IMG/VR virus record: IMGVR_UViG_3300010233_002389
Reading direction: 5' to 3' (one strand)
Source of the DNA: an uncultured virus (IMG/VR IMGVR_UViG_3300010233_002389)
Lineage: Duplodnaviria; Heunggongvirae; Uroviricota; Caudoviricetes
DNA: 64,000 bases
Positions 8,609 to 63,461 of this stretch are shown piece after piece (positions within the stretch are counted from its first letter, which is position 1; every line of letters begins with the position of its first letter). The notes under the pieces were generated by a model. The model was given only the letters and a program-made list of their open reading frames with translations, did not search any database and was not told where the DNA came from. The position numbers were made by a program, and so were the translations under genes.

Positions 8609-9067
8609 ATGCCTGTAGAATCTAATGTCTATGATACTCCTGAGGGGATAACTCTTCGTAAAGACCAAGATGATCCTTTGGTGATGTATTTTATTATTAG
8701 AGAGTCTCTTAACATGGGTAAAGGAAAAATTGGCGCTCAGTGTGCTCATGCAGCTCAGATGATAATTCTTAAATACGCACAGCTTGCAATACATAAGTCA
8801 ACAGAAATCCTAGATGACACAGAGTTTAAAAAATACAATATCACTAGAGAGTGGTTAGAAGGATCATTTCGTAAGGTTGTATTAAGAGCTGATGATAAAG
8901 AATTTGAAAAAGTAAAAGAGCAATTGGATTGTTTCCTTGTTCGCGATGGTGGCTTAACAGAAATTGCTGCGGGAAGCGAAACTGTCCTTGTCTTATGGCC
9001 AATGAAGAAAAGCGAACGTCCTAAAACAATAAAGAGATTACAGATTCTTAAAGATGAAGAGTCATAA
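8609..9067 (+). CDS. pth2: peptidyl-tRNA hydrolase, Pth2 type
   Basis: MGKGKIGAQCAHA, KVVLRA, VRDGGLTEIAAGSETVL. Confidence 0.9.
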   Translation: MPVESNVYDTPEGITLRKDQDDPLVMYFIIRESLNMGKGKIGAQCAHAAQMIILKYAQLAIHKSTEILDDTEFKKYNITREWLEGSFRKVVLRADDKEFEKVKEQLDCFLVRDGGLTEIAAGSETVLVLWPMKKSERPKTIKRLQILKDEES

Positions 9068-9278
9068 TTTTGAACCTGTAGGAAAAGAAGAGTCTGACAG
9101 TCCGTGTCCTTGCAATACATGTCAAGAAGAAAACAAACATCAGCTATATAAATGTGTTGACTGTGGAATTGTTAAAGCCGTAGCTACAGATAGAACAGAA
9201 ACATTGTGGGCACAATCCGAAGGAGTAATTCCTAGCGAAAATTGTGATGAAATAATAATGGCGGAAATATTAAAATAG
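9054..9278 (+). CDS. CxxC family protein with C-terminal tag
   Basis: SHNF, CVDCG, ends NCDEIIMAEILK. Confidence 0.75.
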   Translation: MKSHNFEPVGKEESDSPCPCNTCQEENKHQLYKCVDCGIVKAVATDRTETLWAQSEGVIPSENCDEIIMAEILK

Positions 9279-13050: not shown

Positions 13051-13395
13051 ATGGACTCCACGGGCTGCCAAATTTATCTATCTACAAGAGCTTTAGAAAA
13101 GATTAAAGAACAATTAGTCGCACGCAAAACTCCCGATGCTGCATTGCGCTTGGGGCTTCGTTCTGGCGGCTGCTCTGGCTATTCCTACGTAATACAATTT
13201 GAAGATGACCCTCCATCAGATAGAGACCATCAATTTGAATTTGATGGCGTTAAAGTATTTGTTGATAAGAAGAGTATGATTTATCTTGCGGGAATAACTC
13301 TTGATTGGGAAAAGAGTTTATCATGCCAAGGATTCAAAATTATAAACGAAAAAGAAAAAACAAAATGTGGATGTGGACTATCATTTTCAGTATAG
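13051..13395 (+). CDS. iscA: Fe-S cluster assembly A-type carrier (IscA/HesB)
   Basis: GGCSGYSY, VDKKS, CGCGLSF. Confidence 0.9.
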   Translation: MDSTGCQIYLSTRALEKIKEQLVARKTPDAALRLGLRSGGCSGYSYVIQFEDDPPSDRDHQFEFDGVKVFVDKKSMIYLAGITLDWEKSLSCQGFKIINEKEKTKCGCGLSFSV

Positions 13396-25745: not shown

Positions 25746-25825
25746 GGTGTTGACGATAAATTGGCTAAATCAAGAGTCTGTAAAACTCCCGCTCCGGCTT
25801 GTAGGTTCGATTCCTATCAGCACCA
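25746..25825 (+). tRNA. tRNA-Tyr(GTA)
   Basis: GGTGTTG/CAGCACC; loop CTGTAAA; long variable arm; TTCGATT. Confidence 0.85.
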
Positions 25826-27378: not shown

Positions 27379-27451
27379 TCGGGATTCGTATATTGGCTTA
27401 TTACCGAAGGCTTTGACCCTTCAGAAGGCAGTTCGATTCTGTCATCCCGAA
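27379..27451 (+). tRNA. tRNA-Gln(TTG)
   Basis: TCGGGAT/ATCCCGA; GAAGG-CTTTGAC-CCTTC; TTCGATT. Confidence 0.85.
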
Positions 27452-29011: not shown

Positions 29012-29132
29012 GTCTCGGTAGCTCAGCGGTAGAGCAGTCGGCTGTGGGAAGGTGCTGATAATGCAGCTTGGTTCAAAGCCAAACATTCCAAGAATAACCG
29101 ACTCGTCGAAGGTTCAATCCCTTCCCGGGACT
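29012..29132 (+). tRNA. tRNA with 49-nt anticodon-loop insert (Asn GTT or His GTG after removal)
   Basis: GTCTCGG/CCGGGAC; GCTC/GAGC D-stem; GTCGG/CCGAC anticodon stem enclosing 56 nt; GAAGG-TTCAATC-CCTTC. Confidence 0.75.
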
Positions 29133-35214: not shown

Positions 35215-35285
35215 GGTCCCATAGTTTAAAAGTAGAACAAAAGCCTTTCAAGCTTTGAACGCCGGCGCGATACCGACTGGGATCA
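35215..35285 (+). tRNA. tRNA-Glu(TTC)
   Basis: GGTCCCA/TGGGATC; AAAGC-CTTTCAA-GCTTT; atypical T-loop CGCGATA. Confidence 0.75.
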
Positions 35286-38458: not shown

Positions 38459-39040
38459 GTGAATTGTATGAACATTTGTACAATATATGTTATAAAAAAT
38501 ACGATAAATGATAAAGTTTATATTGGTCAAACTTGGTGCAAATTAAATAAAAGATTTAGTGAACATAAGGGAAATAAAAGTGGTAGTTGTCGTAAATTAT
38601 TTAGAGCCTTTAATCAACATGGTAGAGATAATTTTTATATAGAACAACTTTATAATTGCGATAACCAAATTGAAACAGATATGATGGAAGATTATTATAT
38701 CAAAAAATATAATTCAATTAAGAGTGGCTATAATATAAGAGAGGGTGGATCAAAGGGCAAATTATCTAAAGAAACTAAGACAAAAATGTCATTAGCCGCA
38801 AAAGGTAATAAAAAATGGCTTGGTAAAAAACACTCTAAAGAATCTAAAACAAAAATATCATTATCTAATATGGGTAAAAATATTGGCAAAAAACATTCAG
38901 AAGAAACTAAAACAAAAATGTCATTAGCTAAAATAGGAAATAAAAACTCTTTAGGAACAAACCGTTCAGAAGAAACTAAAAGAAAAATATCATTAGCTAT
39001 GATAGGTAATAAAAATGGCTTGGTAAAGCACTCTAAATAG
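38459..39040 (+). CDS. GIY-YIG homing endonuclease with NUMOD3 repeats
   Basis: close paralog of 34271 (CRKLFRAFN.HGR.NFYI, GYNIREGG). Confidence 0.9.
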   Translation: MNCMNICTIYVIKNTINDKVYIGQTWCKLNKRFSEHKGNKSGSCRKLFRAFNQHGRDNFYIEQLYNCDNQIETDMMEDYYIKKYNSIKSGYNIREGGSKGKLSKETKTKMSLAAKGNKKWLGKKHSKESKTKISLSNMGKNIGKKHSEETKTKMSLAKIGNKNSLGTNRSEETKRKISLAMIGNKNGLVKHSK

Positions 39041-39058
39041 TATATAGGAAATAATAAA

Positions 39059-39595
39059 ATGAATGATAAAGAACTTACAAAAAAATCAAAAAAATTATCT
39101 TATATCTTGCGTCATGATCCTAAGAGTGCTAGCTTGGTGCTCGATAATGCCGGATGGGTAAGTACAAGTAAGCTTCTAACTGCAACAGCTATGACTTCTG
39201 AAGAGCTTGATTGGGTTGTAGCTAACAATAATAAAAAACGGTTTGAGTTCAACGCTGATAAGACGCAGATACGAGCAAGCCAGGGTCATAGTGTAGAAGT
39301 AGATTTGGAATATGAACCTACAAAACCACCAGATGTACTGTATCATGGAACCGCCGTTCACTTTTACGATAACATCATGTTATATGGTCTGAAGAAAATG
39401 GATAGGCATCATGTACATTTATCTATAGACATTAAAACCGCAAAAACTGTTGGAAGTAGAAAAGGAACACCAATTGTATTAGAGATAAATGCAAAACAAA
39501 TGTATGAACAGGGGAAAGATTTTTATTTATCAACAAATGGAGTATGGTTAACTGACTATATACCATCAATCAATATTAAAAAAATAAGCATATAA
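39059..39595 (+). CDS. kptA: RNA 2'-phosphotransferase (KptA/Tpt1)
   Basis: SKKLSYILRH, KKRF, IRASQGHS, LYHGT, RHHVHLS, NGVWL. Confidence 0.95.
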   Translation: MNDKELTKKSKKLSYILRHDPKSASLVLDNAGWVSTSKLLTATAMTSEELDWVVANNNKKRFEFNADKTQIRASQGHSVEVDLEYEPTKPPDVLYHGTAVHFYDNIMLYGLKKMDRHHVHLSIDIKTAKTVGSRKGTPIVLEINAKQMYEQGKDFYLSTNGVWLTDYIPSINIKKISI

Positions 39596-42159: not shown

Positions 42160-44205
42160 ATGAATAAAATATTCACAATTGTGTTGTTGTTTTTATTGGT
42201 CGCTTGTTCTCCATCAGGAACTGATTTTATTGGACAAACAAAACAAAAATTATCTGGTCCTGTTGCCGCATATGCATTTGAAGAAGGGTCCGGATATAAA
42301 GCAAACGAAATCTCCGGTAACAGCGCCCTTCAAGGAACACTTTATAATGGTGTTGGATGGACTAATTCAGGTAAACATGGAAATGGAGTCACTTTCCCAT
42401 CTGGAGGAACATTTATACAAATCAATGATGCGGCTTCACTTCATTTAACAACAGGGATGACGCTATCAGCTTGGGTTAACCCAACTAGTACGAACTATCC
42501 AGGAGCGGTAATCGCAAAAGAAGGTTCCAGTAATCCAAATTATGCTTTATTTGCCGGTACAGGAACAAATATTCCACAAATCCAATATACAAATAATAAC
42601 ATAACAAAGTCAATCAGTGATACCACTTCGGCTATTGGCTCATGGACATATATAGCTGGTACATATGATGGTACGACTCTTCGTATGTATCGTGATGGTG
42701 TTCTAACCGCTAGTGCCACACAGCCATCACCTATGGATACATCTACCGGATGGCTAGAGATTGGCTCTGATACAAATATTGCTGCTTACTTTCGCGGCAC
42801 AATTGATGATGTACGAGTTTATGATAGAGCATTGTCACAATCTGAAATTCAATCAGACATGAATACTGGGGTTGGGCAAACTCCAGTAGATGCTAGCGTT
42901 GATGCTCCCTCAGATTCTAATACTGAAGCCGAGGCAGCAACCGTCACACCAGAAGCCGGGTCGGAGTCAGGCTCTGACTCAGGCGCGAGTGTTTATCCAT
43001 TAAAACTTGTAACTGGGAAACGGTATCTTGCTGATCAAACTGACAAACCTTTCCTTATGCAAGCTGACACTGCATGGTCTTTACCTGCACGACTACAAGA
43101 TGCCGATGCTGAAATATATTTAGAAGATCGTCGAGTTAAAGGCTTCAACACAGTTTTGATCGAATTAATCAATCATTTGGATGGACCAAGCGGGATTAAC
43201 AATGCCTACAACATCGCGCCATTCAACGTACCTGGTGATTTCTCAACGCCAAATGACGCCTACTTTACGTATATAGATGCTGTCTTACAGAAAGCGCTTT
43301 CCAAGAACCTCCTCGTAATTGCTTTTCCAGCTTATCTTGGTTATACGGGAACGAATGAGGGGTGGATGGCGGAGATGATCACAAGTGGAGCTACGAAATG
43401 CGCTGCATATGGGACCTATCTTGGCAATCGTTACAAGAACTATCCAAACATTATTTGGGCGAACGGTGGAGATGACTCAACAGCAGATAAATCACTTGTG
43501 GATGCCATCGCGTCCGCCATCCGGGCAGCCGGCGCAACACAATTGCAGACGGCACATGCTTACCCAGACGTTTCAGCTCGTGCCTATTATGGCTCGTACA
43601 CATGGTTGGATGTTGATACTGTATATCGACAAACACCAAGTATTCTAGCAGCTTCATTAGTTGAATATAATCTCGTACCTATAAAACCATTTTTCCTCAT
43701 TGAGTCAGCATACGAGGGCGGAACCACTTCTCCAAACGCGCAAGTAGTTCGCCAAGAAGCTTATGAACCATTACTTGGCGGTGGTTTTGGACAATTTTTC
43801 GGCAATTACCCACTTTGGATCTTCGACTCAGGATGGCAAGCCGCACTTAATAGCCAGGGGTCATTGGACATGCAACGACTTCATACGCTATTCACATCTC
43901 GACGATGGGATCTCCTCGTTCCAGATCAGACTTCGGCGTTTATAACATCAGGCGGGTCAGGAATATCTGCCGCACGTGCATCAGATGGTTCTTGGGGAAT
44001 TGTTTATATTCCTACAACTCGCAACATGATGATTGACTTATCTGGATTCTCACATCCAGTTAATGCAAAATGGTTTGACCCAACCAATGGAACATATACA
44101 ACTATTCAATGTTCTCCATTCAATAATTGCGGAACTCGGTCAATATTATCTACTCCTGGTAATAATAGCGCTGGCGACCAAGATTGGATTTTAGTATTTG
44201 AATAA
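42160..44205 (+). CDS. paralogous LamG + DUF4038-like lipoprotein
   Basis: lipobox LVAC; near-identical LamG region to 39629; shorter linker. Confidence 0.8.
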   Translation: MNKIFTIVLLFLLVACSPSGTDFIGQTKQKLSGPVAAYAFEEGSGYKANEISGNSALQGTLYNGVGWTNSGKHGNGVTFPSGGTFIQINDAASLHLTTGMTLSAWVNPTSTNYPGAVIAKEGSSNPNYALFAGTGTNIPQIQYTNNNITKSISDTTSAIGSWTYIAGTYDGTTLRMYRDGVLTASATQPSPMDTSTGWLEIGSDTNIAAYFRGTIDDVRVYDRALSQSEIQSDMNTGVGQTPVDASVDAPSDSNTEAEAATVTPEAGSESGSDSGASVYPLKLVTGKRYLADQTDKPFLMQADTAWSLPARLQDADAEIYLEDRRVKGFNTVLIELINHLDGPSGINNAYNIAPFNVPGDFSTPNDAYFTYIDAVLQKALSKNLLVIAFPAYLGYTGTNEGWMAEMITSGATKCAAYGTYLGNRYKNYPNIIWANGGDDSTADKSLVDAIASAIRAAGATQLQTAHAYPDVSARAYYGSYTWLDVDTVYRQTPSILAASLVEYNLVPIKPFFLIESAYEGGTTSPNAQVVRQEAYEPLLGGGFGQFFGNYPLWIFDSGWQAALNSQGSLDMQRLHTLFTSRRWDLLVPDQTSAFITSGGSGISAARASDGSWGIVYIPTTRNMMIDLSGFSHPVNAKWFDPTNGTYTTIQCSPFNNCGTRSILSTPGNNSAGDQDWILVFE

Positions 44206-44510
44206 TGTATAAAATAAAGAAAGTATTAGATAGAGTATAGAGACAGGCTAGAGGCATAAATGTACTTTGATACAAACATTGACTGGAATCGTAAAGTATT
44301 AGATAGCGAAGCTCATGATATTGATTCAATAGAAGAGTTAGAAGAATACATTCGCGTTTTACGTGCCAAAGGAGAAAGGCTCTTTAATAAAAAAGAAGAA
44401 TCAATAGTCACTGTAAAAGAAGAAGCGCCACAAGAAGAGTCTGTACAACTAGAATTTCCTGTGGTAACATCATACTACTAATCTTGTGATATATGATTTA
44501 GAAAAGGTAA

Positions 44511-44561
44511 ATGAAAATGTTTGCGTAGCTATATAATATAATCCGTGGTCCGCCACTCTGA
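44511..44561 (+). promoter_or_regulatory. leader peptide MKMFA(TAG)LYNIIRGPPL
   Basis: AAGG RBS-like element; in-frame TAG at 44526; RGPP at 44544-44555; TGA at 44559. Confidence 0.6.
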
Positions 44562-44618
44562 AACTAATTTAATCAAATTTATTGTTAACTAGTTTTTAAA
44601 GAAGGGTTGGTTTGTTAC

Positions 44619-45053
44619 ATGGATACATTAATTGAATATTATAAGAAGAATGATTTTCACCGGCTGCGTGCTCTAGTAAAGGGCTATGGAGCCGAAGGAG
44701 TTACTATTCACAAAGCTATTTGGAGATCGAAGGGGCAGAAGAAAGCCTCATTGCGATACCGAAAGCAAGTGGTTGGTAACTGGGCTAGAAGCTGTTATCT
44801 TGCGTACGGGTTAGTGCGCGGAATTCCATATAAAAATGTAGAGAAGCATTGCGGCGAGCACAATAAGCCATATGCGGATAGTATTTACAACGTACTAAAA
44901 AGCGTTGGCGAAAACTCCTACTATAAAGAATGGAATATCGAAAAAATACAGGCTTGGCTTAATGACGAGAAGTATATAGAAAAGCCAGCCAAAGAGATTC
45001 CACCCAAAGAAGAGCCAAAGAAAGAATCCTGGCTCAAGAGGATATTCCAATGA
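44619..45053 (+). CDS. hypothetical basic protein (LAYGLVRGIPY motif)
   Basis: GAAGGG RBS; its stop overlaps the ATG at 45050. Confidence 0.7.
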   Translation: MDTLIEYYKKNDFHRLRALVKGYGAEGVTIHKAIWRSKGQKKASLRYRKQVVGNWARSCYLAYGLVRGIPYKNVEKHCGEHNKPYADSIYNVLKSVGENSYYKEWNIEKIQAWLNDEKYIEKPAKEIPPKEEPKKESWLKRIFQ

Positions 45054-45391
45054 CGTAGTTACAAGAAGGCGATAAGCTTTATGTAATCGTACGTTCCGAC
45101 ATTACAAAAGGCTACATGTTGGCTCAGAGCTGCCATTGTGCCATTCAATTTTTTATGGAACATACAGAGCTAGCCACTGAATGGTATAACAAATCAAATT
45201 ATATTGCGGTGCTAGAAATAAAGAATGAACCAGCGATTCATGAATTATTAGAAAAGGCGTCGAGCAAGCAAATTCGATTCTCCATTTTCAGGGAGCCAGA
45301 TATTAATGACGAAATAACTGCGATTGTGTTGGAACCTGGCGACAAGAGCAGAAAATTATGTGCTAATTTACCTTTGGCATTGAAAGAATAA
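45050..45391 (+). CDS. Pth2-like peptidyl-tRNA hydrolase with in-frame TAG at codon 3
   Basis: GAGGA RBS; ATG ACG TAG then LQEGDKLYVIVRSDITKGYMLAQSCH...FREPDI..EITAI; the Pth2-like N-terminal strand lies upstream of ATG 45116. Confidence 0.75.
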
Positions 45392-45396
45392 AATAT

Positions 45397-46040
45397 ATGA
45401 TATATACAGGTATGTATGGTCCTCAAATATTGTCTGGATTCACTGGTCCACAAGGAATTATAAAAGAAGAAAGTATTAATGGTAAGCCATACGAGTTGGT
45501 CAACAAATTGGGAGAAATAAGAGACGCGCTACCTGTCATTGAAGGGATGCATAACTTAATTGCAAAAAAGCTAATACTTACAATTGCAATAAATTCAGGC
45601 AATCGCAGCAATATACTCAATAGACATACTGAAGATTTTAAAGAAGAACTTGAAAGATATTCAAATTATATTTTGAGATTACAACAAGAACTTACATCAT
45701 TAATTAATATATTAGCGATGGGCGAGATTATAAAGTAATAGGAGAAGTATTAGATATGACAAATGGACAGGCATCAGCACAGGGAATTGATATGGCAAGT
45801 GAATCTGGTTCTTGGGCATTTCGCCAAAAAGTAGATATTACAATAATGAGACTTGAAGCACTTAGAATATATAATGAATTAATATTAAGGAAATTACAAT
45901 TAATTCGTTCTAATAAAAATAAGGATGTCACCGAAGAAGCATTAGAAGAATTTAACAGATATATTACATATGCAATTAAGGCAAAAGATGAATTTAATTC
46001 TGCTATTAATGAAGCAACTATGTTAGATGTATTGAAATAA
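45397..46040 (+). CDS. two helical proteins with MxxIL-like C-termini (45397-45738, 45756-46040)
   Basis: similar helical bodies (EEL/F.RY..Y); ends MGEIIK and MLDVLK. Confidence 0.65.
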
Positions 46041-46058
46041 AAACTTGAAAGGGTTTCA

Positions 46059-46181
46059 GACCGTCAATCCTTAACCGATCCAGCTGAATGGGTTCCGCCT
46101 GATGAAGACAAAGTTGATGTTAAACGTAGCGCGGCGGACGGCACAAAACGAGTTCACAGCATCGTGTACTTTAGGACGGTC
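46059..46181 (+). ncRNA. putative structured RNA upstream of a tRNA
   Basis: GC-rich intergenic segment; GACCGTC/GACGGTC closing stem; TCCGCC/GGCGGA internal stem. Confidence 0.45.
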
Positions 46182-46188
46182 AATTTAA

Positions 46189-46262
46189 GTGCTTATAGCT
46201 CAATGGTAGAGCGGGAAAATTCTAACTTTTATCGGTTGGTGGTTCAAGTCCACTTAAGCACA
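46189..46262 (+). tRNA. probable amber suppressor tRNA(CTA); alternative Arg(TCT)
   Basis: GTGCTTA/TAAGCAC; AAAA-TTCTAAC-TTTT gives a canonical U32-U33-CUA-A37 loop; the TCT register needs A32 and an A-C closing pair. Confidence 0.6.
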
Positions 46263-46379
46263 CTTTTTGTTTTTGACGATCAATATAACGCTTAATTGCA
46301 GTCCCACTTACACCAAATATTCTTCCCAATTCTTCATAACTGTGATTTTTGGTTAGTTCAATAAGTTTATAGGGCACAA

Positions 46380-47576
46380 ATGGTGAAAAGAATACCGTCA
46401 ATAATTATTACTGTCAAATCATTAGATACAATTGTAAATATTACTAATAAAGGGCACACTTGGCAGCTAGAAGAAGATTTGTATATTTGTTCTAAAACAA
46501 AAGATACAGTTACCGGTGCAGAATGTAAAGTATGTGGGTGTTATGCTGATTATTTCTTTAATGATAAAGGATATTGGGTCGCCGCATTTTCAAATGCAAC
46601 AATACTTACATGTAACGAATATTTGCTAAAAGAAGTTCTGCATTAATGCCAATTGTAAAAATAACCCATGAACATAATTGGGAAAAAATTGAAAACAGTA
46701 ATAGCCCAAAATTTTTTACCCACAGATGTAAAAACTGTGGTTTGCCAGGTATACAAAAAGCTAAGGGTATGTTCACTGGAGCACATCGTCTGGCATCTAT
46801 CTCTTGTAGCACATATGTAATGGAACAAATATTAAAATAAATGGACTATAGTCATTTTTATGAACTTACCATTACAGGTATTGGTCACGATTGGAATAAA
46901 ATAAGTGACCCATTTATACATACACACGTATGTAAAAAATGTGGTATTTATGCCGTTTATCAATCTGGTAAAATGAAATGTGACAGATACCAAGGTTACA
47001 ACAAAACATGTGATGAAATAATAATGAAAGATATACTAAAGTAAATATGATATATAATATTGGTTTTAGGGCGATGGATCATTATGAGCGCGTGAATGAT
47101 AAAGGTCATGATTGGGAAATGGAAAAAGGGGCGAAATATGAAGACGGTCGCTACATTTACTTTGACAATTATAAAATAGAAGACGTTGCTTACGTATATG
47201 TCACTTGCAAAACGTGTGGATTACTAGCAGAATATTTTACGGATGATAACTCGTATATTACATGTTACTCTGTAAAAGGAGATACACGTATGTGTAAGGA
47301 CCGTCTAATGGCAGATATATTAACGTGAACATTTGGACAGAAGAAATTAAAGAACAACATGAATGGGAAAAAGCAGTTATAAACCAAGAGTCTTCATATG
47401 TTGTGGAGCCATATAGTCATATTTGTAAAATGTGTAAATTAGAAGCTTCCCCACATTTTAACTTTAGTAAAATAGATAAAAATAGAATGATGACAAGCGG
47501 TGGCATCTTTGACGATTGGGACCAGCCATGTGCTATAAGAAGAAACACGATGATAATGAAGGATGTACTAAAGTAA
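46380..47576 (+). CDS. array of five HxW/CxxC tagged proteins (46380-46646, 46646-46840, 46841-47044, 47047-47328, 47325-47576)
   Basis: H-x-W, CKxC, C-terminal C...[ML]-x-x-[IV]-L. Confidence 0.8.
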
Positions 47577-47581
47577 AATTT

Positions 47582-47652
47582 GCGCCCATAGCTCAAAGGA
47601 AGAGCAGCGTTCTCTAAAAATGCGGTTGAGATGTCGGAATTCTCTGGGCGCG
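47582..47652 (+). tRNA. amber suppressor tRNA(CTA)
   Basis: GCGCCCA/TGGGCGC+G73; GCTC/GAGC; GCGTT-CTCTAAA-AATGC; T-arm GAGAT-GTCGGAA-TTCTC. Confidence 0.8.
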
Positions 47653-47654
47653 CA

Positions 47655-48306
47655 ATGGTATTACCTTATATTATAATAGCAGAAGATAAAGAACATCAAT
47701 TCATTCCAAATGGTCCGCAAATTCAAATGCAGGAAGCAAATTATATTTGTTCAAAATGTCATTTGAGAGTAGTTGTAGGGTCAGATGAGCAATATCGTTA
47801 TGAAGAGTTGTGGCGTAATGAGGATTGGAAATTAACTTGTAATGAATTGTTGATGCGCGATATACTAAAATGAAAGATAATTGGGGAAAACTTAGATGGG
47901 CGGACATCACAAATAAAGGACATGCGTTCGTTATTGAAGAACCAACTTCAGAAGGCGGCTGTAATCATTGGGCTCATTGTACAACCTGTGGATTATGTGA
48001 TGCTGAGTACCATCCCAAAGAAAAAAAGTATTTCGTATCAACATCTACCGATGAAGATGACCCTTGCGGTGAAATATTAATGAGAAGTGTACTAAAATGA
48101 ATACATATTATATGTCTGACAAAGAACATAGCTGGGAAGAAGACCCCACTGAACCAAATTCGTCAGATGATATTGTATTTTTAGTTAAATGTAAAGTATG
48201 TGGAGTTTGCGCAACTTATGACGTTTCAGACCATGAATATTATTCTTATGACGCTCACTTAGATCTTAAATGTAAAGACCGATTATTATCAGATATATTA
48301 TTATAA
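47655..48306 (+). CDS. three CxxC tagged proteins (47655-47873, 47870-48100, 48097-48306)
   Basis: [DN]K[EG]H-x-[FW], CxxC, ends C.E..MR..LK or CKDRLLSDILL. Confidence 0.8.
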
Positions 48307-48316
48307 AAGGAATCAA

Positions 48317-48880
48317 ATGGACCAATAGCTTCAACTCATTTCAGATATGCAATCATGTAACCAATCGTCCAATCAAACGATTTATGAACATGGTATTGCC
48401 GTTCGCGATAAACTCTTCGAACTTATTAACTCGCAAAACCTAAGCCAATGGCGTATCCCAAATTGGTTCAATGAACATAAAGATAAGCTTTTTAGTAATT
48501 TGTATGATTGGGAAATATTAGAAACGTATACTACATTTCATGATTGCGGAAAACCTTATTGCAGAACTGTAGATGAGAATGGGAAACAACACTTTCCCAA
48601 TCATGCAAATACATCTGCCGATAAGTGGCTTGAAGTCGATGGGTCGAATATCATTGCAAATCTGATTCGAAATGATATGATGGTCCATACAATGAAATCC
48701 TCCGATATAGAGGAATTCTGTAAGGACCCAAAGATGGCGTGCAGTTTACTTTTAACGGCACTTGCAGAAATCCACGCGAACAGTATACTGTTCGGAGGTA
48801 TTGAGTCGGTAAGCTTCAAAATAAAGTGGAAGCAAATTGATAAGATAGGGAAGAAGATTTGTAGCACTATAGTGGTATAA
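48317..48880 (+). CDS. HD-domain phosphohydrolase with in-frame TAG at codon 4
   Basis: AAGGA RBS; ATG GAC CAA TAG CTT in frame with ORF 48347; EHG...FHDCGKP...HFPNHA. Confidence 0.7.
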
Positions 48881-48892
48881 TAATTGTAACTT

Positions 48893-48966
48893 CGGGGTGT
48901 AGCTCAGCTTGATAGAGCGATCGGTTTGGGTCCGATAGGTCGCTGGTTTGATTCCAGTCACCCCGA
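48893..48966 (+). tRNA. tRNA-Pro(TGG)
   Basis: CGGGGTG/CACCCCG; ATCGG-TTTGGGT-CCGAT. Confidence 0.9.
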
Positions 48967-49952
48967 CAAATTAAACAATGTTAAGTTCAGAAGACAAAGC
49001 ATACCTTGACGGTATAAAAGAAGCAGCTATCGCAATTGCCAAAGCAAATGAATTAAGCTGTGCATTGGCATACCATTTATCTGCGCAGTTGTGGTCCTTG
49101 TGGTGGAAGAGATATGAGGTAGGCAATGGACGCGAACAAGCTCAAGAAGTTGAACGACATCAATTACCAAATACCTAAGACATGCGGAATATGCAAACAT
49201 GGTACATTTCCTAAGAATGAATGGGGAACCTGCAATGTCATTACCTATGACCATGAAAAGCATTCCGATTCAAAGCGCCAGCTAAGCATCTACAAAGGTG
49301 GCAAGTGCGCTAACAAGTTTGAACTAGACCAAGCCAAAGCCTTTGCATTGGGCGGATTTATAGAACTAATAAAGTGATGGATGAAGATTTATACAAATTC
49401 CGCCTGAGGCATATGAATATATGTTAATGGAATTAAGACGTCGAGAGGCATCTCTTTCGTGCATTTAATTGGGCATGATAACAATAAAAGAATTAGAGCA
49501 TATAGCTACCTTCGCTAAAACAATTACTGTTAGTTTAGCTACTTTTGCAGTGACAGTAATGGAAGACCCCGATGAAGCTGCTAGGGTGAGATTTATCCCC
49601 TCTACAGACTGCACCTTATTAGCTCAAGGTATATATGGTTCAATTGGCGCTTGTAAAGTCGTAGTAGATACACAAGTACCAGACGGTGAAATAAGAATCA
49701 AATGAAACAAACATTATTATTGGTTGCATTAACATTAACTAGCTGCTATACTTGTCCTGCCAACACTGGCTTTAGTACGAATTGTGCATCGGAAAACACG
49801 GTTCCTTCGCAAACAGATCAATTTGATCCTCATTGGGTAGATAACCAAAGCGATAATCAAATTGAAACAAATTATTGTTCAAAAATGTTATTAACAGAAG
49901 ATGCACGAGCCAGACTAATATTAGAGATTAAGAAACGCAAATTGCATCCGCT

Positions 49953-50223: not shown

Positions 50224-50297
50224 GGTGTTTATAGCTTAATTGGTAAAGCATCTGACTATGAATCAGAAAGTCGGGAGTTCGAATCTCCTTAAACACC
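50224..50297 (+). tRNA. tRNA-His(ATG)
   Basis: encoded G-1 and C73; TCTGA-CTATGAA-TCAGA; TTCGAAT. Confidence 0.85.
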
Positions 50298-50299
50298 CT

Positions 50300-50370
50300 G
50301 TGGCTATGGTGTAGCGGAAGCACAGTAGATTGTGGATCTATTAGTGATGGTTCAACTCCATCTAGTCACC
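50300..50370 (+). tRNA. tRNA-His(GTG)
   Basis: GTGGCTA/TAGTCAC+C73; GTAGA-TTGTGGA-TCTAT; no genomic G-1. Confidence 0.85.
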
Positions 50371-50773
50371 CATCGGAGTAAGTTTATGGAAAAATATCCT
50401 CTTAAATCTAAAATATTTAAATTAGGACACGAAATGCCATCTAATGAATCATTTCCATTGGATGACTATATGAATAAATTTATTATTATTAATTCTGAAA
50501 TAATGCAAACAGTTCATACCCATCCAGAATGTACAAATTGGCAGGTTGGTTTTGAAAGCCAATCTCTGGAAGATGATTATGGCGATGAATATAATATCAC
50601 TAAAATATACTTAAGTGCCACTCGTGAAATGAATGAATCGGAAAAGAAAGAATTTAACGATAAACAAAAGTTTTTGGAAGAGTGTGAAGAGGTCTTCAAG
50701 AAGACGAAAAGGAAGATGAAGCGTCAAGAAGCAAAGCAACGCGCAAATATAAAGCAAGCGGTCCTAAATAATA

Positions 50774-63227: not shown

Positions 63228-63461
63228 ATGAACCATAATTGGACAATTGAAATAATTTCAGATATGCCCAGTTTGCATACTTATAGGGATGATCGGCGAG
63301 ATATTTCTTTAAACATAAAATGTCATAATTGTGGATTTTATGTTAATGGAAAAGGAGATTTTCTTTCCGTTAAGGACGCAAAAAATTGGGCTAATGGATT
63401 ACCAAAAAGTTTTGAAGCTGAAAATTGTAACGAACATATAATGAAACAAATATTAAAATGA
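63228..63461 (+). CDS. HxW/CxxC tagged protein
   Basis: MNHNW, CHNCG, ends NCNEHIMKQILK. Confidence 0.75.
   Translation: MNHNWTIEIISDMPSLHTYRDDRRDISLNIKCHNCGFYVNGKGDFLSVKDAKNWANGLPKSFEAENCNEHIMKQILK

Follow-up and report, generated by a model that had tools for sequence, protein, structure and literature searches.

The release factor gene prfB (release factor 2, RF2) is autoregulated through an in-frame UGA and a +1 frameshift, by which the release factor is sensed, and engineered amber-suppressor logic gates make expression conditional on a suppressor tRNA. Here we describe a locus of an uncultured Caudoviricetes virus (IMG/VR record IMGVR_UViG_3300010233_002389), of which a stretch of 64,000 nucleotides (nt), hereafter called the window, was analysed. 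In this locus a short leader open reading frame (ORF), a Pth2-like gene (peptidyl-tRNA hydrolase 2 family) and an HD-type phosphohydrolase gene each carry an in-frame TAG, the gate, within their first six codons, and they are accompanied by a gene for a tRNA with the anticodon CUA, tRNA(CUA). Judged from sequence and comparison with relatives, the locus is likely to be a small regulon whose expression depends on a suppressor tRNA encoded by the phage itself, which otherwise uses the standard code. As in prfB, an early in-frame stop in a translation-related gene would tie synthesis to the decoding of that stop; unlike in prfB, the frame is unchanged and the cognate tRNA is encoded beside the gene. 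Unlike the engineered gates this would be a natural, conserved case and, if true, the natural counterpart of the amber-suppressor gates of synthetic biology. The bar minigenes of phage lambda, which load Pth, are very short, and their products are acted on by peptidyl-tRNA hydrolase; a link between the stub of two or three codons before the TAG and the hydrolase's own substrate is speculation by this analogy.

Suppression has also been described in TAG-recoded phages (crAss-like, Lak and others), in which TAG is read as glutamine (genetic code 15) and, according to the accessible parts of the reports, suppressor tRNAs have been proposed to time the late or lytic genes (bioRxiv 10.1101/2021.08.26.457843; PMC9523058; PMC13037316). 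The present locus resembles these phages in having a phage tRNA(CUA), in-frame TAG codons and suppression as a translational switch. It differs from them in that TAG stays a stop elsewhere and only the leader and two tRNA-related genes have an early TAG, which lies outside conserved sequence. Since TAG is confined to the first codons of these three elements, we speak of a gate and not of codon reassignment, and the arrangement is an indication that phages can occupy a stage midway from the standard code to the reassignment of TAG.

CUA tRNAs in a standard-code jumbo phage are known from XacN1, whose authors, in the accessible text of their paper, continued ORFs beyond 18 amber stops of the annotation without finding a target of the two CUA tRNAs (PMC5852040). 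The gate sits in a two-codon stub upstream of an annotated start and would be invisible to ORF extension of the kind that this text describes. The paper on phage CBB makes no mention of a suppressor or of amber codons, and the accessible part of a 2026 survey of jumbo phages discusses suppressor tRNAs only for recoded genomes. No prior description of the gated design was found in the literature, supplementary files lying outside the coverage. If true, the reading would give a function to the suppressor tRNAs of standard-code jumbo phages, hitherto without a known target, and would provide a case of a ribosome-arrest leader coupled to stop-codon read-through.

The leader itself is comparable to the RAPP/RGPP arrest peptides (ApdA, ApdP, ApcA and the upstream ORFs of Streptomyces; PMC12992588, PMC10987492), being a short upstream ORF that ends in RGPP and is followed by a start predicted to be masked. 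RGPP is, in the accessible part of one of these reports, a robust arrest motif which is not relieved by elongation factor P (EF-P) (PMC12992588). Unlike the arrest peptides presented in the accessible parts of both reports, the leader has its motif behind an in-frame UAG, is only 16 residues long and has no secretion or membrane segment, and in the leaders of most relatives the stop follows (R/K)PP without a further codon.

The elements on which the argument depends are the following, with positions counted from the first letter of the window.

44511 to 44561, plus strand: amber-gated leader of 16 codons, MKMFA-TAG-LYNIIRGPPL-TGA, with the RGPP codons at 44544-44555 and the stop at 44559-44561.
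44619 to 45053, plus strand: P0003, the gene predicted to be controlled by the leader, 144 amino acids (aa), starting at ATG 44619 (TTG 44607 is possible), its TGA overlapping the next ATG.
45050 to 45391, plus strand: Pth2-like gene with TAG at codon 3 (45056-45058), encoding a protein of 113 residues with TAG read as X.
46189 to 46263, plus strand: tRNA(CUA), called by ARAGORN and matched by the Rfam tRNA model (46189-46262) with 55.3 bits against a cut-off of 29.
48317 to 48880, plus strand: HD-type phosphohydrolase gene with TAG at codon 4 (48326-48328), encoding a protein of 187 residues with TAG read as X.

An earlier note on this DNA had reported three early in-frame TAG codons, and all were present as claimed: ATG AAA ATG TTT GCG TAG CTA at 44511, with TAG at codon 6 of the leader (44526-44528), ATG ACG TAG TTA at 45050 and ATG GAC CAA TAG CTT at 48317. 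Plausible ribosome-binding signals, also part of the claim, were found before all three starts: AAAAGG precedes 44511 and the alternative leader start ATG 44517, AAGAGGA lies 7 nt 5' of 45050, where the ATG in addition shares bases with the TGA that closes the preceding ORF (ATGA), and AAAGGA lies 5 nt 5' of 48317. By itself, an in-frame TAG before an ORF with an ATG no more than six codons 5' of it is not uncommon: the pattern occurred with 7 of 130 ORFs of the window. It is because of its conservation across relatives, and not because of the pattern in one window, that the gate is held to be beyond chance.

The gate was present in 10 of the 11 phages checked by eye, which were nine named phages, LR745206 and the phage of this window. 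The arrangements outside the window were as follows.

Pth2-like gene with TAG at codon 3-4: LR745206, RsoM2USA (unannotated there), CBB, Arash, ME3 and pT24 (as a Pth2::HD fusion).
HD::Pth2 fusion with TAG at codon 3-4: XacN1, Xoo-sp13 and CM1.
HD-like gene with TAG at codon 4: LR745206 and RsoM2USA.
HD-like gene with TAG at codon 47: CBB.
HD-like gene without a gate: ME3 and Arash.

In XacN1 the fusion begins ATG AAG TAG. The ATG TAG GTG of the mycobacteriophage IkeLoa was considered as a gate and rejected, as the Shine-Dalgarno sequence fits the GTG. That the TAGs are nonsense mutations in decayed, dispensable genes, or assembly errors, would agree with GenBank entries that are truncated, split or unannotated (RsoM2USA, CBB_406/407/408, pT24 BPT24_235). 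This explanation is scarcely credible, as dozens of diverged loci have the TAG at one and the same N-terminal position and the genes are otherwise intact, with invariant residues of catalytic type. Published Pth2-like and HD-like genes are mis-annotated in MG752970 (L002, about 2057-2420), KU574722 (CBB_406-408), LC168164 (BPT24_235) and AP018399 (ORF364); a TAG early in or inside the gene has led annotators to omit the gene, to split it in two or to begin it at a downstream ATG. The practical consequence is that these genes are truncated, split or missing in GenBank phage records.

Pth2-like genes were also surveyed in IMG/VR, where 80 loci were fetched and 79 could be evaluated. A gate was defined as an ATG, 1-14 codons and TAG. 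By this definition 45 of the 79 loci were gated, the TAG standing 6-13 codons before the R-x-D motif of the protein, and in 41 of the 45 there is no canonical start from the TAG to the R-x-D motif; most of the remaining 34 belong to a clade of higher G+C with plain starts. An HD-like gene was found in 25 of 94 loci and was gated in 22 of the 25, directly in 16 and at the N-terminus of a Pth2::HD fusion in 6. As some of the loci came from the same contig or were near-identical, duplicates were removed, which left 56 distinct gates. The gate codon was always TAG, never TAA or TGA, in both gene families, and among the distinct gates it stood at codon 3 in 25, at codon 4 in 16 and at codon 5 in 9.

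A 3' purine favours amber suppression. The base after the gate was A in 43 and G in 10 of the 56, compared to A at 59 of the 197 ordinary TAG stops of these loci. The observation of the earlier note that the TAG is always followed by a leucine codon held in the window and was not borne out in the relatives, as ATT, ATC or ATA comes next in 29 of the 56 distinct gates. Shine-Dalgarno pairing was stronger at the gate ATG than at random ATGs (median -3.9 and -1.8 kcal/mol, respectively, p 0.008), and a leucine codon before the TAG varies synonymously (TTA, CTA, CTT) in close relatives; both suggest that the codons before the TAG are translated.

By its profile matches the gene at 45050 is a member of the Pth2 family. 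Pfam PTH2 (PF01981) matched with an E-value of 8.1e-12 and 45.8 bits against a cut-off of 23, with residues 9-100 on profile positions 2-103 of 115, and a profile made from five phage sequences matched the solved archaeal Pth2 2zv3 over its full length (E 7e-9, positions 6-106 on 2-114). Residues R12, D14, Q23, H26, E79, P80 and T87 are invariant in the phage family. In archaeal Pth2 the catalytic residues are a lysine in the GKGK loop and an aspartate; the phage family is without the two-residue 'mgKGK' insertion, and the aligned lysine is not conserved. The first ATG, GTG or TTG after the TAG is ATG 45116, and the Pth2 match as well as the invariant arginine and aspartate begin before it. 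Because the conserved start of the domain lies between the TAG and 45116, a full-length Pth2 domain needs read-through.

The HD-like gene belongs to phrog_14850 (E 1.1e-63), and its protein carries the HD signature, with H21, H71-D72 (HDCGKP), H92, D116, H120 and H149 invariant in 13 sequences. As the match to Pfam HD (PF01966) is below the gathering score (15.9 bits compared to 22, E 0.016), the assignment rests on motif and fold. The structure model has a predicted confidence (pLDDT) of 95.5. Among solved structures, profile search and fold search alike ranked 3wfo-3wfs first (entries titled 'Poly A polymerase / tRNA processing enzyme'), although with marginal scores (hmmsearch E 7e-4; Foldseek E 1.3e-3, template modelling score (TM) 0.59-0.64 on the query). 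These marginal scores suggest, as nearest relative of the protein, which has no nucleotidyltransferase head domain, the HD region of the class II tRNA nucleotidyltransferases. In the CCA-adding enzyme of Escherichia coli the HD domain acts as a phosphatase and as a 2',3'-cyclic phosphodiesterase, and a role of the HD-like protein at tRNA 3' ends, which would fit such activity, may be taken as a lead. The Pth2-like and HD-like proteins are fused in both orders, as Pth2::HD in pT24 and loci L032, L034 and L037 and as HD::Pth2 in XacN1, Xoo-sp13 and CM1, which argues that they act together.

The gated genes were commonly found near a cognate tRNA. A tRNA(CUA) lay within 6 kb on either side in 40 of the 45 gated Pth2-like loci and within 8 kb on either side in 12 of 14 HD-like loci. 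Among the named phages ARAGORN found tRNA(CUA) in RsoM2USA, Xoo-sp13, CBB, pT24, Arash and IkeLoa, and in ME3 it is annotated in the record. The tRNA(CUA) of the window has a canonical cloverleaf, a short variable arm, discriminator A and no encoded CCA. In a comparison of 25 CUA tRNAs the nearest tRNA types by similarity were Lys (7), Arg (4), Met (4), Ala (3) and others, which gives no clear identity. On the minus strand, a 59-aa ORF with a helix-turn-helix-like stretch (46222-46401), without a PHROG match, overlaps the 3' end of the tRNA(CUA) gene.

The earlier note had proposed to check whether homologues keep the N-terminal TAG, the PP leader and the CUA tRNA, and all three recur across dozens of diverged phages. 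As the trait is phylogenetically clustered, the raw two-by-two table of gate and tRNA is not a statistical proof. The case rests on three points: in three separate elements TAG has been kept across deep divergence and no other stop has taken its place, it lies in N-terminal tails that are not conserved, and the cognate tRNA is present. This comparative evidence supports the proposal that a local amber-dependent switch, and not genome-wide recoding, acts on Pth-like and HD genes beside a CUA tRNA.

The leader has the motif of an arrest peptide, with RGPP near the C-terminus of a small upstream ORF (...IIRGPPL-stop). The pattern M-x(0-8)-TAG-x(4-25)-PP(x)-stop was searched for over 1.23 Mb of loci and gave 26 matches on the strand of the module and 3 on the opposite strand, and the same pattern gated by TAA or TGA gave 4 and 3 matches, respectively. 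Among the 26, 19 end in (R/K)PP and 3 in RAPP, the latter forming with the window's own RGPP an R-(A/G)-PP class of 4; the shared ending is (R/K)(A/G)?PP-stop. In the surveyed loci the leaders are followed by a spacer of 50-100 nt, often with a hairpin, and then by a small gene.

In the window this gene is P0003, which had no Pfam or PHROG match and of which the model is helical (pLDDT 77.5), without a meaningful fold match. P0003 homologues stand behind an amber-gated leader in seven other loci (L046, L100, L078, L082, L106, L060 and L090), and in L046 and L100 the homologue is followed by a stop-start overlap and a gated Pth2-like gene, as in the window. A partition-function fold of 44500-44650 paired the RG and PL-stop codons of the leader with the start region of P0003 (p 0.8-0.98).

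44541-44547 and 44553-44559 with 44618-44624 (start codon) and 44603-44611 (GAAGGG/GG), plus strand: leader/start pairing, a prediction only.

The Rfam scan of the leader region gave no known RNA family. Control by an arrest leader, as put forward in the earlier note, would apply to part of the locus, as the leader precedes the 144-aa gene and, via the ATGA coupling, the Pth2-like gene; the HD-like gene, 3 kb away, is without it.

Reassignment of TAG over the whole genome or in blocks (code 15), as in crAss-like and Lak phages, would account for the presence of CUA tRNAs, and a Pth2-like gene also occurs in Lak-type Prevotella phages (9 records). We regard this as very improbable. Among the plus-strand ORFs of at least 60 aa, 13 of 130 end in TAG, the commonest stop being TAA (76 of 130). 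Four TAG junctions are in frame with the next gene (7654, 13393, 30968 and 39038), and TAG was read through on trial at these and at four others in the window. The TAG at 13393 comes after a complete protein of an IscA-like family (phrog_17776, profile positions 3-112 of 112 matched), and that at 39038 ends a GIY-YIG endonuclease, a Tpt1 profile (positions 1-179 of 183) beginning at the next ATG. Both junctions are thus boundaries between complete, unrelated families. Reading through the junctions 7654 and 30968 gave no family match, no other split gene was rejoined by reading TAG through, and nowhere in the 64 kb are homologous halves of another gene linked by an in-frame TAG. TAG is a genuine stop for the other genes of the window, and the pattern of code 15 was not seen. 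Because TAG closes complete, homology-supported genes, genome-wide recoding is unlikely, and such genes also bear out the earlier statement that the rest of the window reads in the standard code.

We infer that the products of the leader and the two enzyme genes are probably made only when the phage tRNA(CUA) works. When release factor 1 (RF1) wins at the UAG, only a peptide of 2-5 residues would be formed. When tRNA(CUA) is transcribed, processed, charged and delivered, a residue would be inserted in the non-conserved N-terminal tail and the full protein would result. With the gate in the first codons, failure would be cheap and the identity of the inserted residue unimportant. Read-through in the leader would allow the ribosome to reach the RGPP arrest motif, the stalled ribosome would free the start of the next gene, and the ATGA overlap would pass ribosomes on to the Pth2-like gene, the leader being a second control layer for the pair of P0003 and the Pth2-like gene. 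The two enzymes could work jointly at the 3' ends of tRNAs, where they would hydrolyse esters (acyl or peptidyl) and phosphoesters, and their synthesis would be tied to the activity of the suppressor tRNA. As to purpose, suppression may create the substrates of the enzymes (read-through, stalled ribosomes and dropped peptidyl-tRNA), so that the amount of enzyme would follow, or the enzymes may act on the suppressor itself, which would give a feedback loop.

Several observations weigh against gating by the phage suppressor. The three gates of the window are followed by C, T and C, a minority context, with 3 of the 56 in the survey. An efficient suppressor would also pass the TAG-terminated genes of the window, four of which are in frame with the next gene. 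The fold energy of the leader is not better than that of shuffled sequences (z = -1.14), and with the ribosome footprint masked the AUG of the next gene is only 0.26 unpaired, i.e. partly freed. The earlier note counted two CUA tRNAs between the gates, of which that at 46189-46263 is solid and the second, at 47581-47653, is doubtful, having no Rfam tRNA match even at E<=10. There is no tRNA(CUA) within 6 kb in 5 of the 45 gated loci, 3 of these being truncated loci, and in LR745206, which has both gates and the leader, none of the 63 Rfam tRNA matches can be read as CUA, one match of 124 nt being unplaced. Since 9 of 35 ungated Pth2-like loci also have tRNA(CUA), the tRNA is not present for the gate alone. 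The association of gate and tRNA is confounded by ancestry, as the tree needs at least six changes and a single origin is possible, and the independent-pairs test of gate versus CUA tRNA, with one supported pair, had no power. The claim that the enzymes are made only with suppression is supported for the Pth2-like gene, of which the domain starts before the first canonical start after the TAG; the HD-like gene could use the in-frame ATG 48347, six codons past its TAG, and a near-full-length product is possible without suppression.

Such a downstream ATG would fit a reading in which ATG-x-x-TAG is a tiny upstream ORF with a restart at the next or a nearby codon, the TAG tuning the level of expression without any dependence on a tRNA. 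Re-initiation of this kind would also agree with the finding that in 31 of the 56 distinct gates the TAG is followed by a true or near-cognate start (ATT, ATC, ATA, ATG), and with IkeLoa, where the Shine-Dalgarno sequence serves the GTG behind the TAG. We nevertheless consider it quite unlikely. It explains neither the use of TAG every time in AT-rich phages whose commonest stop, in the window, is TAA, nor the linkage to tRNA(CUA). Furthermore, the next codons at the enzyme genes of the window are TTA and CTT, no start codon occurs before the conserved Pth2 strand, and in CM1 there is no ATG after the TAG.

The exceptions to the linkage could be accounted for if the gate were a sensor of RF1 activity, or were passed by read-through with near-cognate tRNAs of the host, while the phage tRNA(CUA) had another job. 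LR745206 keeps its gates without a recognisable CUA tRNA, CUA tRNAs occur in the 9 ungated loci mentioned, and ungated Pth2-like genes also adjoin ochre-type and opal-like tRNAs. This possibility appears improbable to us, given that the cognate tRNA is found within 6 kb in 40 of the 45 gated loci and that the ungated loci L110, L117 and L118, which are inside the mostly gated half of the tree, have UUA and not CUA tRNAs. No frameshift site or other read-through signal was seen.

Gating by the phage suppressor may be part of a wider association. Ungated Pth2-like genes were found with stop-reading tRNAs 0.3-2 kb downstream, either with UCA in loops of 6 or 8 nt (ARAGORN 'tc'/'ttca'; the opal-like loci L055-L057, L061, L066, L069, L072, L081, L084, L097 and L109) or with UUA (the ochre loci L095, L110, L112, L117 and L118). 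Many of these genes fall in the clade of higher G+C, whose members carry at the N-terminus a basic extension, about 80 aa long, that begins MR.KQ. The distribution suggests a partnership between the enzyme and stop-codon-reading tRNAs that is wider than the gate and includes all three stop types. Going further, the Pth2-like/HD pair could be a dedicated partner of phage stop-reading tRNAs generally. In the amber class the enzymes, which would remove acyl or peptidyl groups from the suppressor or mend its 3' end, would themselves depend on suppression for their synthesis. In this closed feedback loop the phage would both measure and limit the ambiguity of its code, and a portable control over the decoding of stop codons could be a stepping stone from standard-code phages to fully TAG-recoded ones. 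This extension is tentative and, in our view, rather unlikely.

Two further features lie between tRNA(CUA) and the HD-like gene.

47581 to 47653, plus strand: second CUA element, tRNA-like and non-canonical, called by ARAGORN only.
46380 to 48306, plus strand: eight small Cys-rich paralogous ORFs, taken from the ORF list, in a tandem array around the second CUA element.

The second CUA element forms a cloverleaf at minimum free energy, with the T-loop GUCGGAA and a U-U pair in the T-stem, and it fills exactly the gap between the TAA at 47574-47576 and the next ATG at 47655. Two CUA tRNAs are present in 7 of the 45 gated loci, and in phages with two, one copy can have a non-canonical T-loop. 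An example is the CUA tRNA copy at 8797-8871 of locus L040, with the T-loop GGGTAAAAATCCC, to be compared with the GUCGGAA of the window. The Cys-rich paralogues are 64-93 aa long and each ends in (D/E)(I/V)LK-stop; further copies are located at 9054-9278 and 63228-63461, and no PHROG match was obtained. We regard the array as context of the switch and not as a demonstrated part of it.

The window as a whole has a G+C content of 35.6%, and its ORFs of at least 60 aa amount to 18,973 residues on the plus strand and 7,144 on the minus strand. No GenBank phage was matched when 44000-49000 was searched by megablast, and the scan for promoters and terminators was uninformative, with 28 sites compared to 22.5 ± 4.2 in shuffled sequences. 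ARAGORN called 15 tRNAs in the window. The tRNA callers differ: matches by Rfam only occur at 25746-25825, 29012-29132 and 35215-35285, of which the one of 121 nt may hold an insert, and the ARAGORN tRNAs at 27379, 27951 and 58809 fall short of the Rfam threshold. At 38459-39595 the GIY-YIG homing endonuclease gene with its TAG end is in frame with an RNA 2'-phosphotransferase gene (Tpt1/KptA-like, phrog_5470, E 4.6e-59), which is another gene of tRNA-repair type in the region. Two adjacent tRNA-His genes are located at 50225-50298 and 50300-50371, one with the unusual anticodon AUG (72 bits in Rfam) and the other with GUG.

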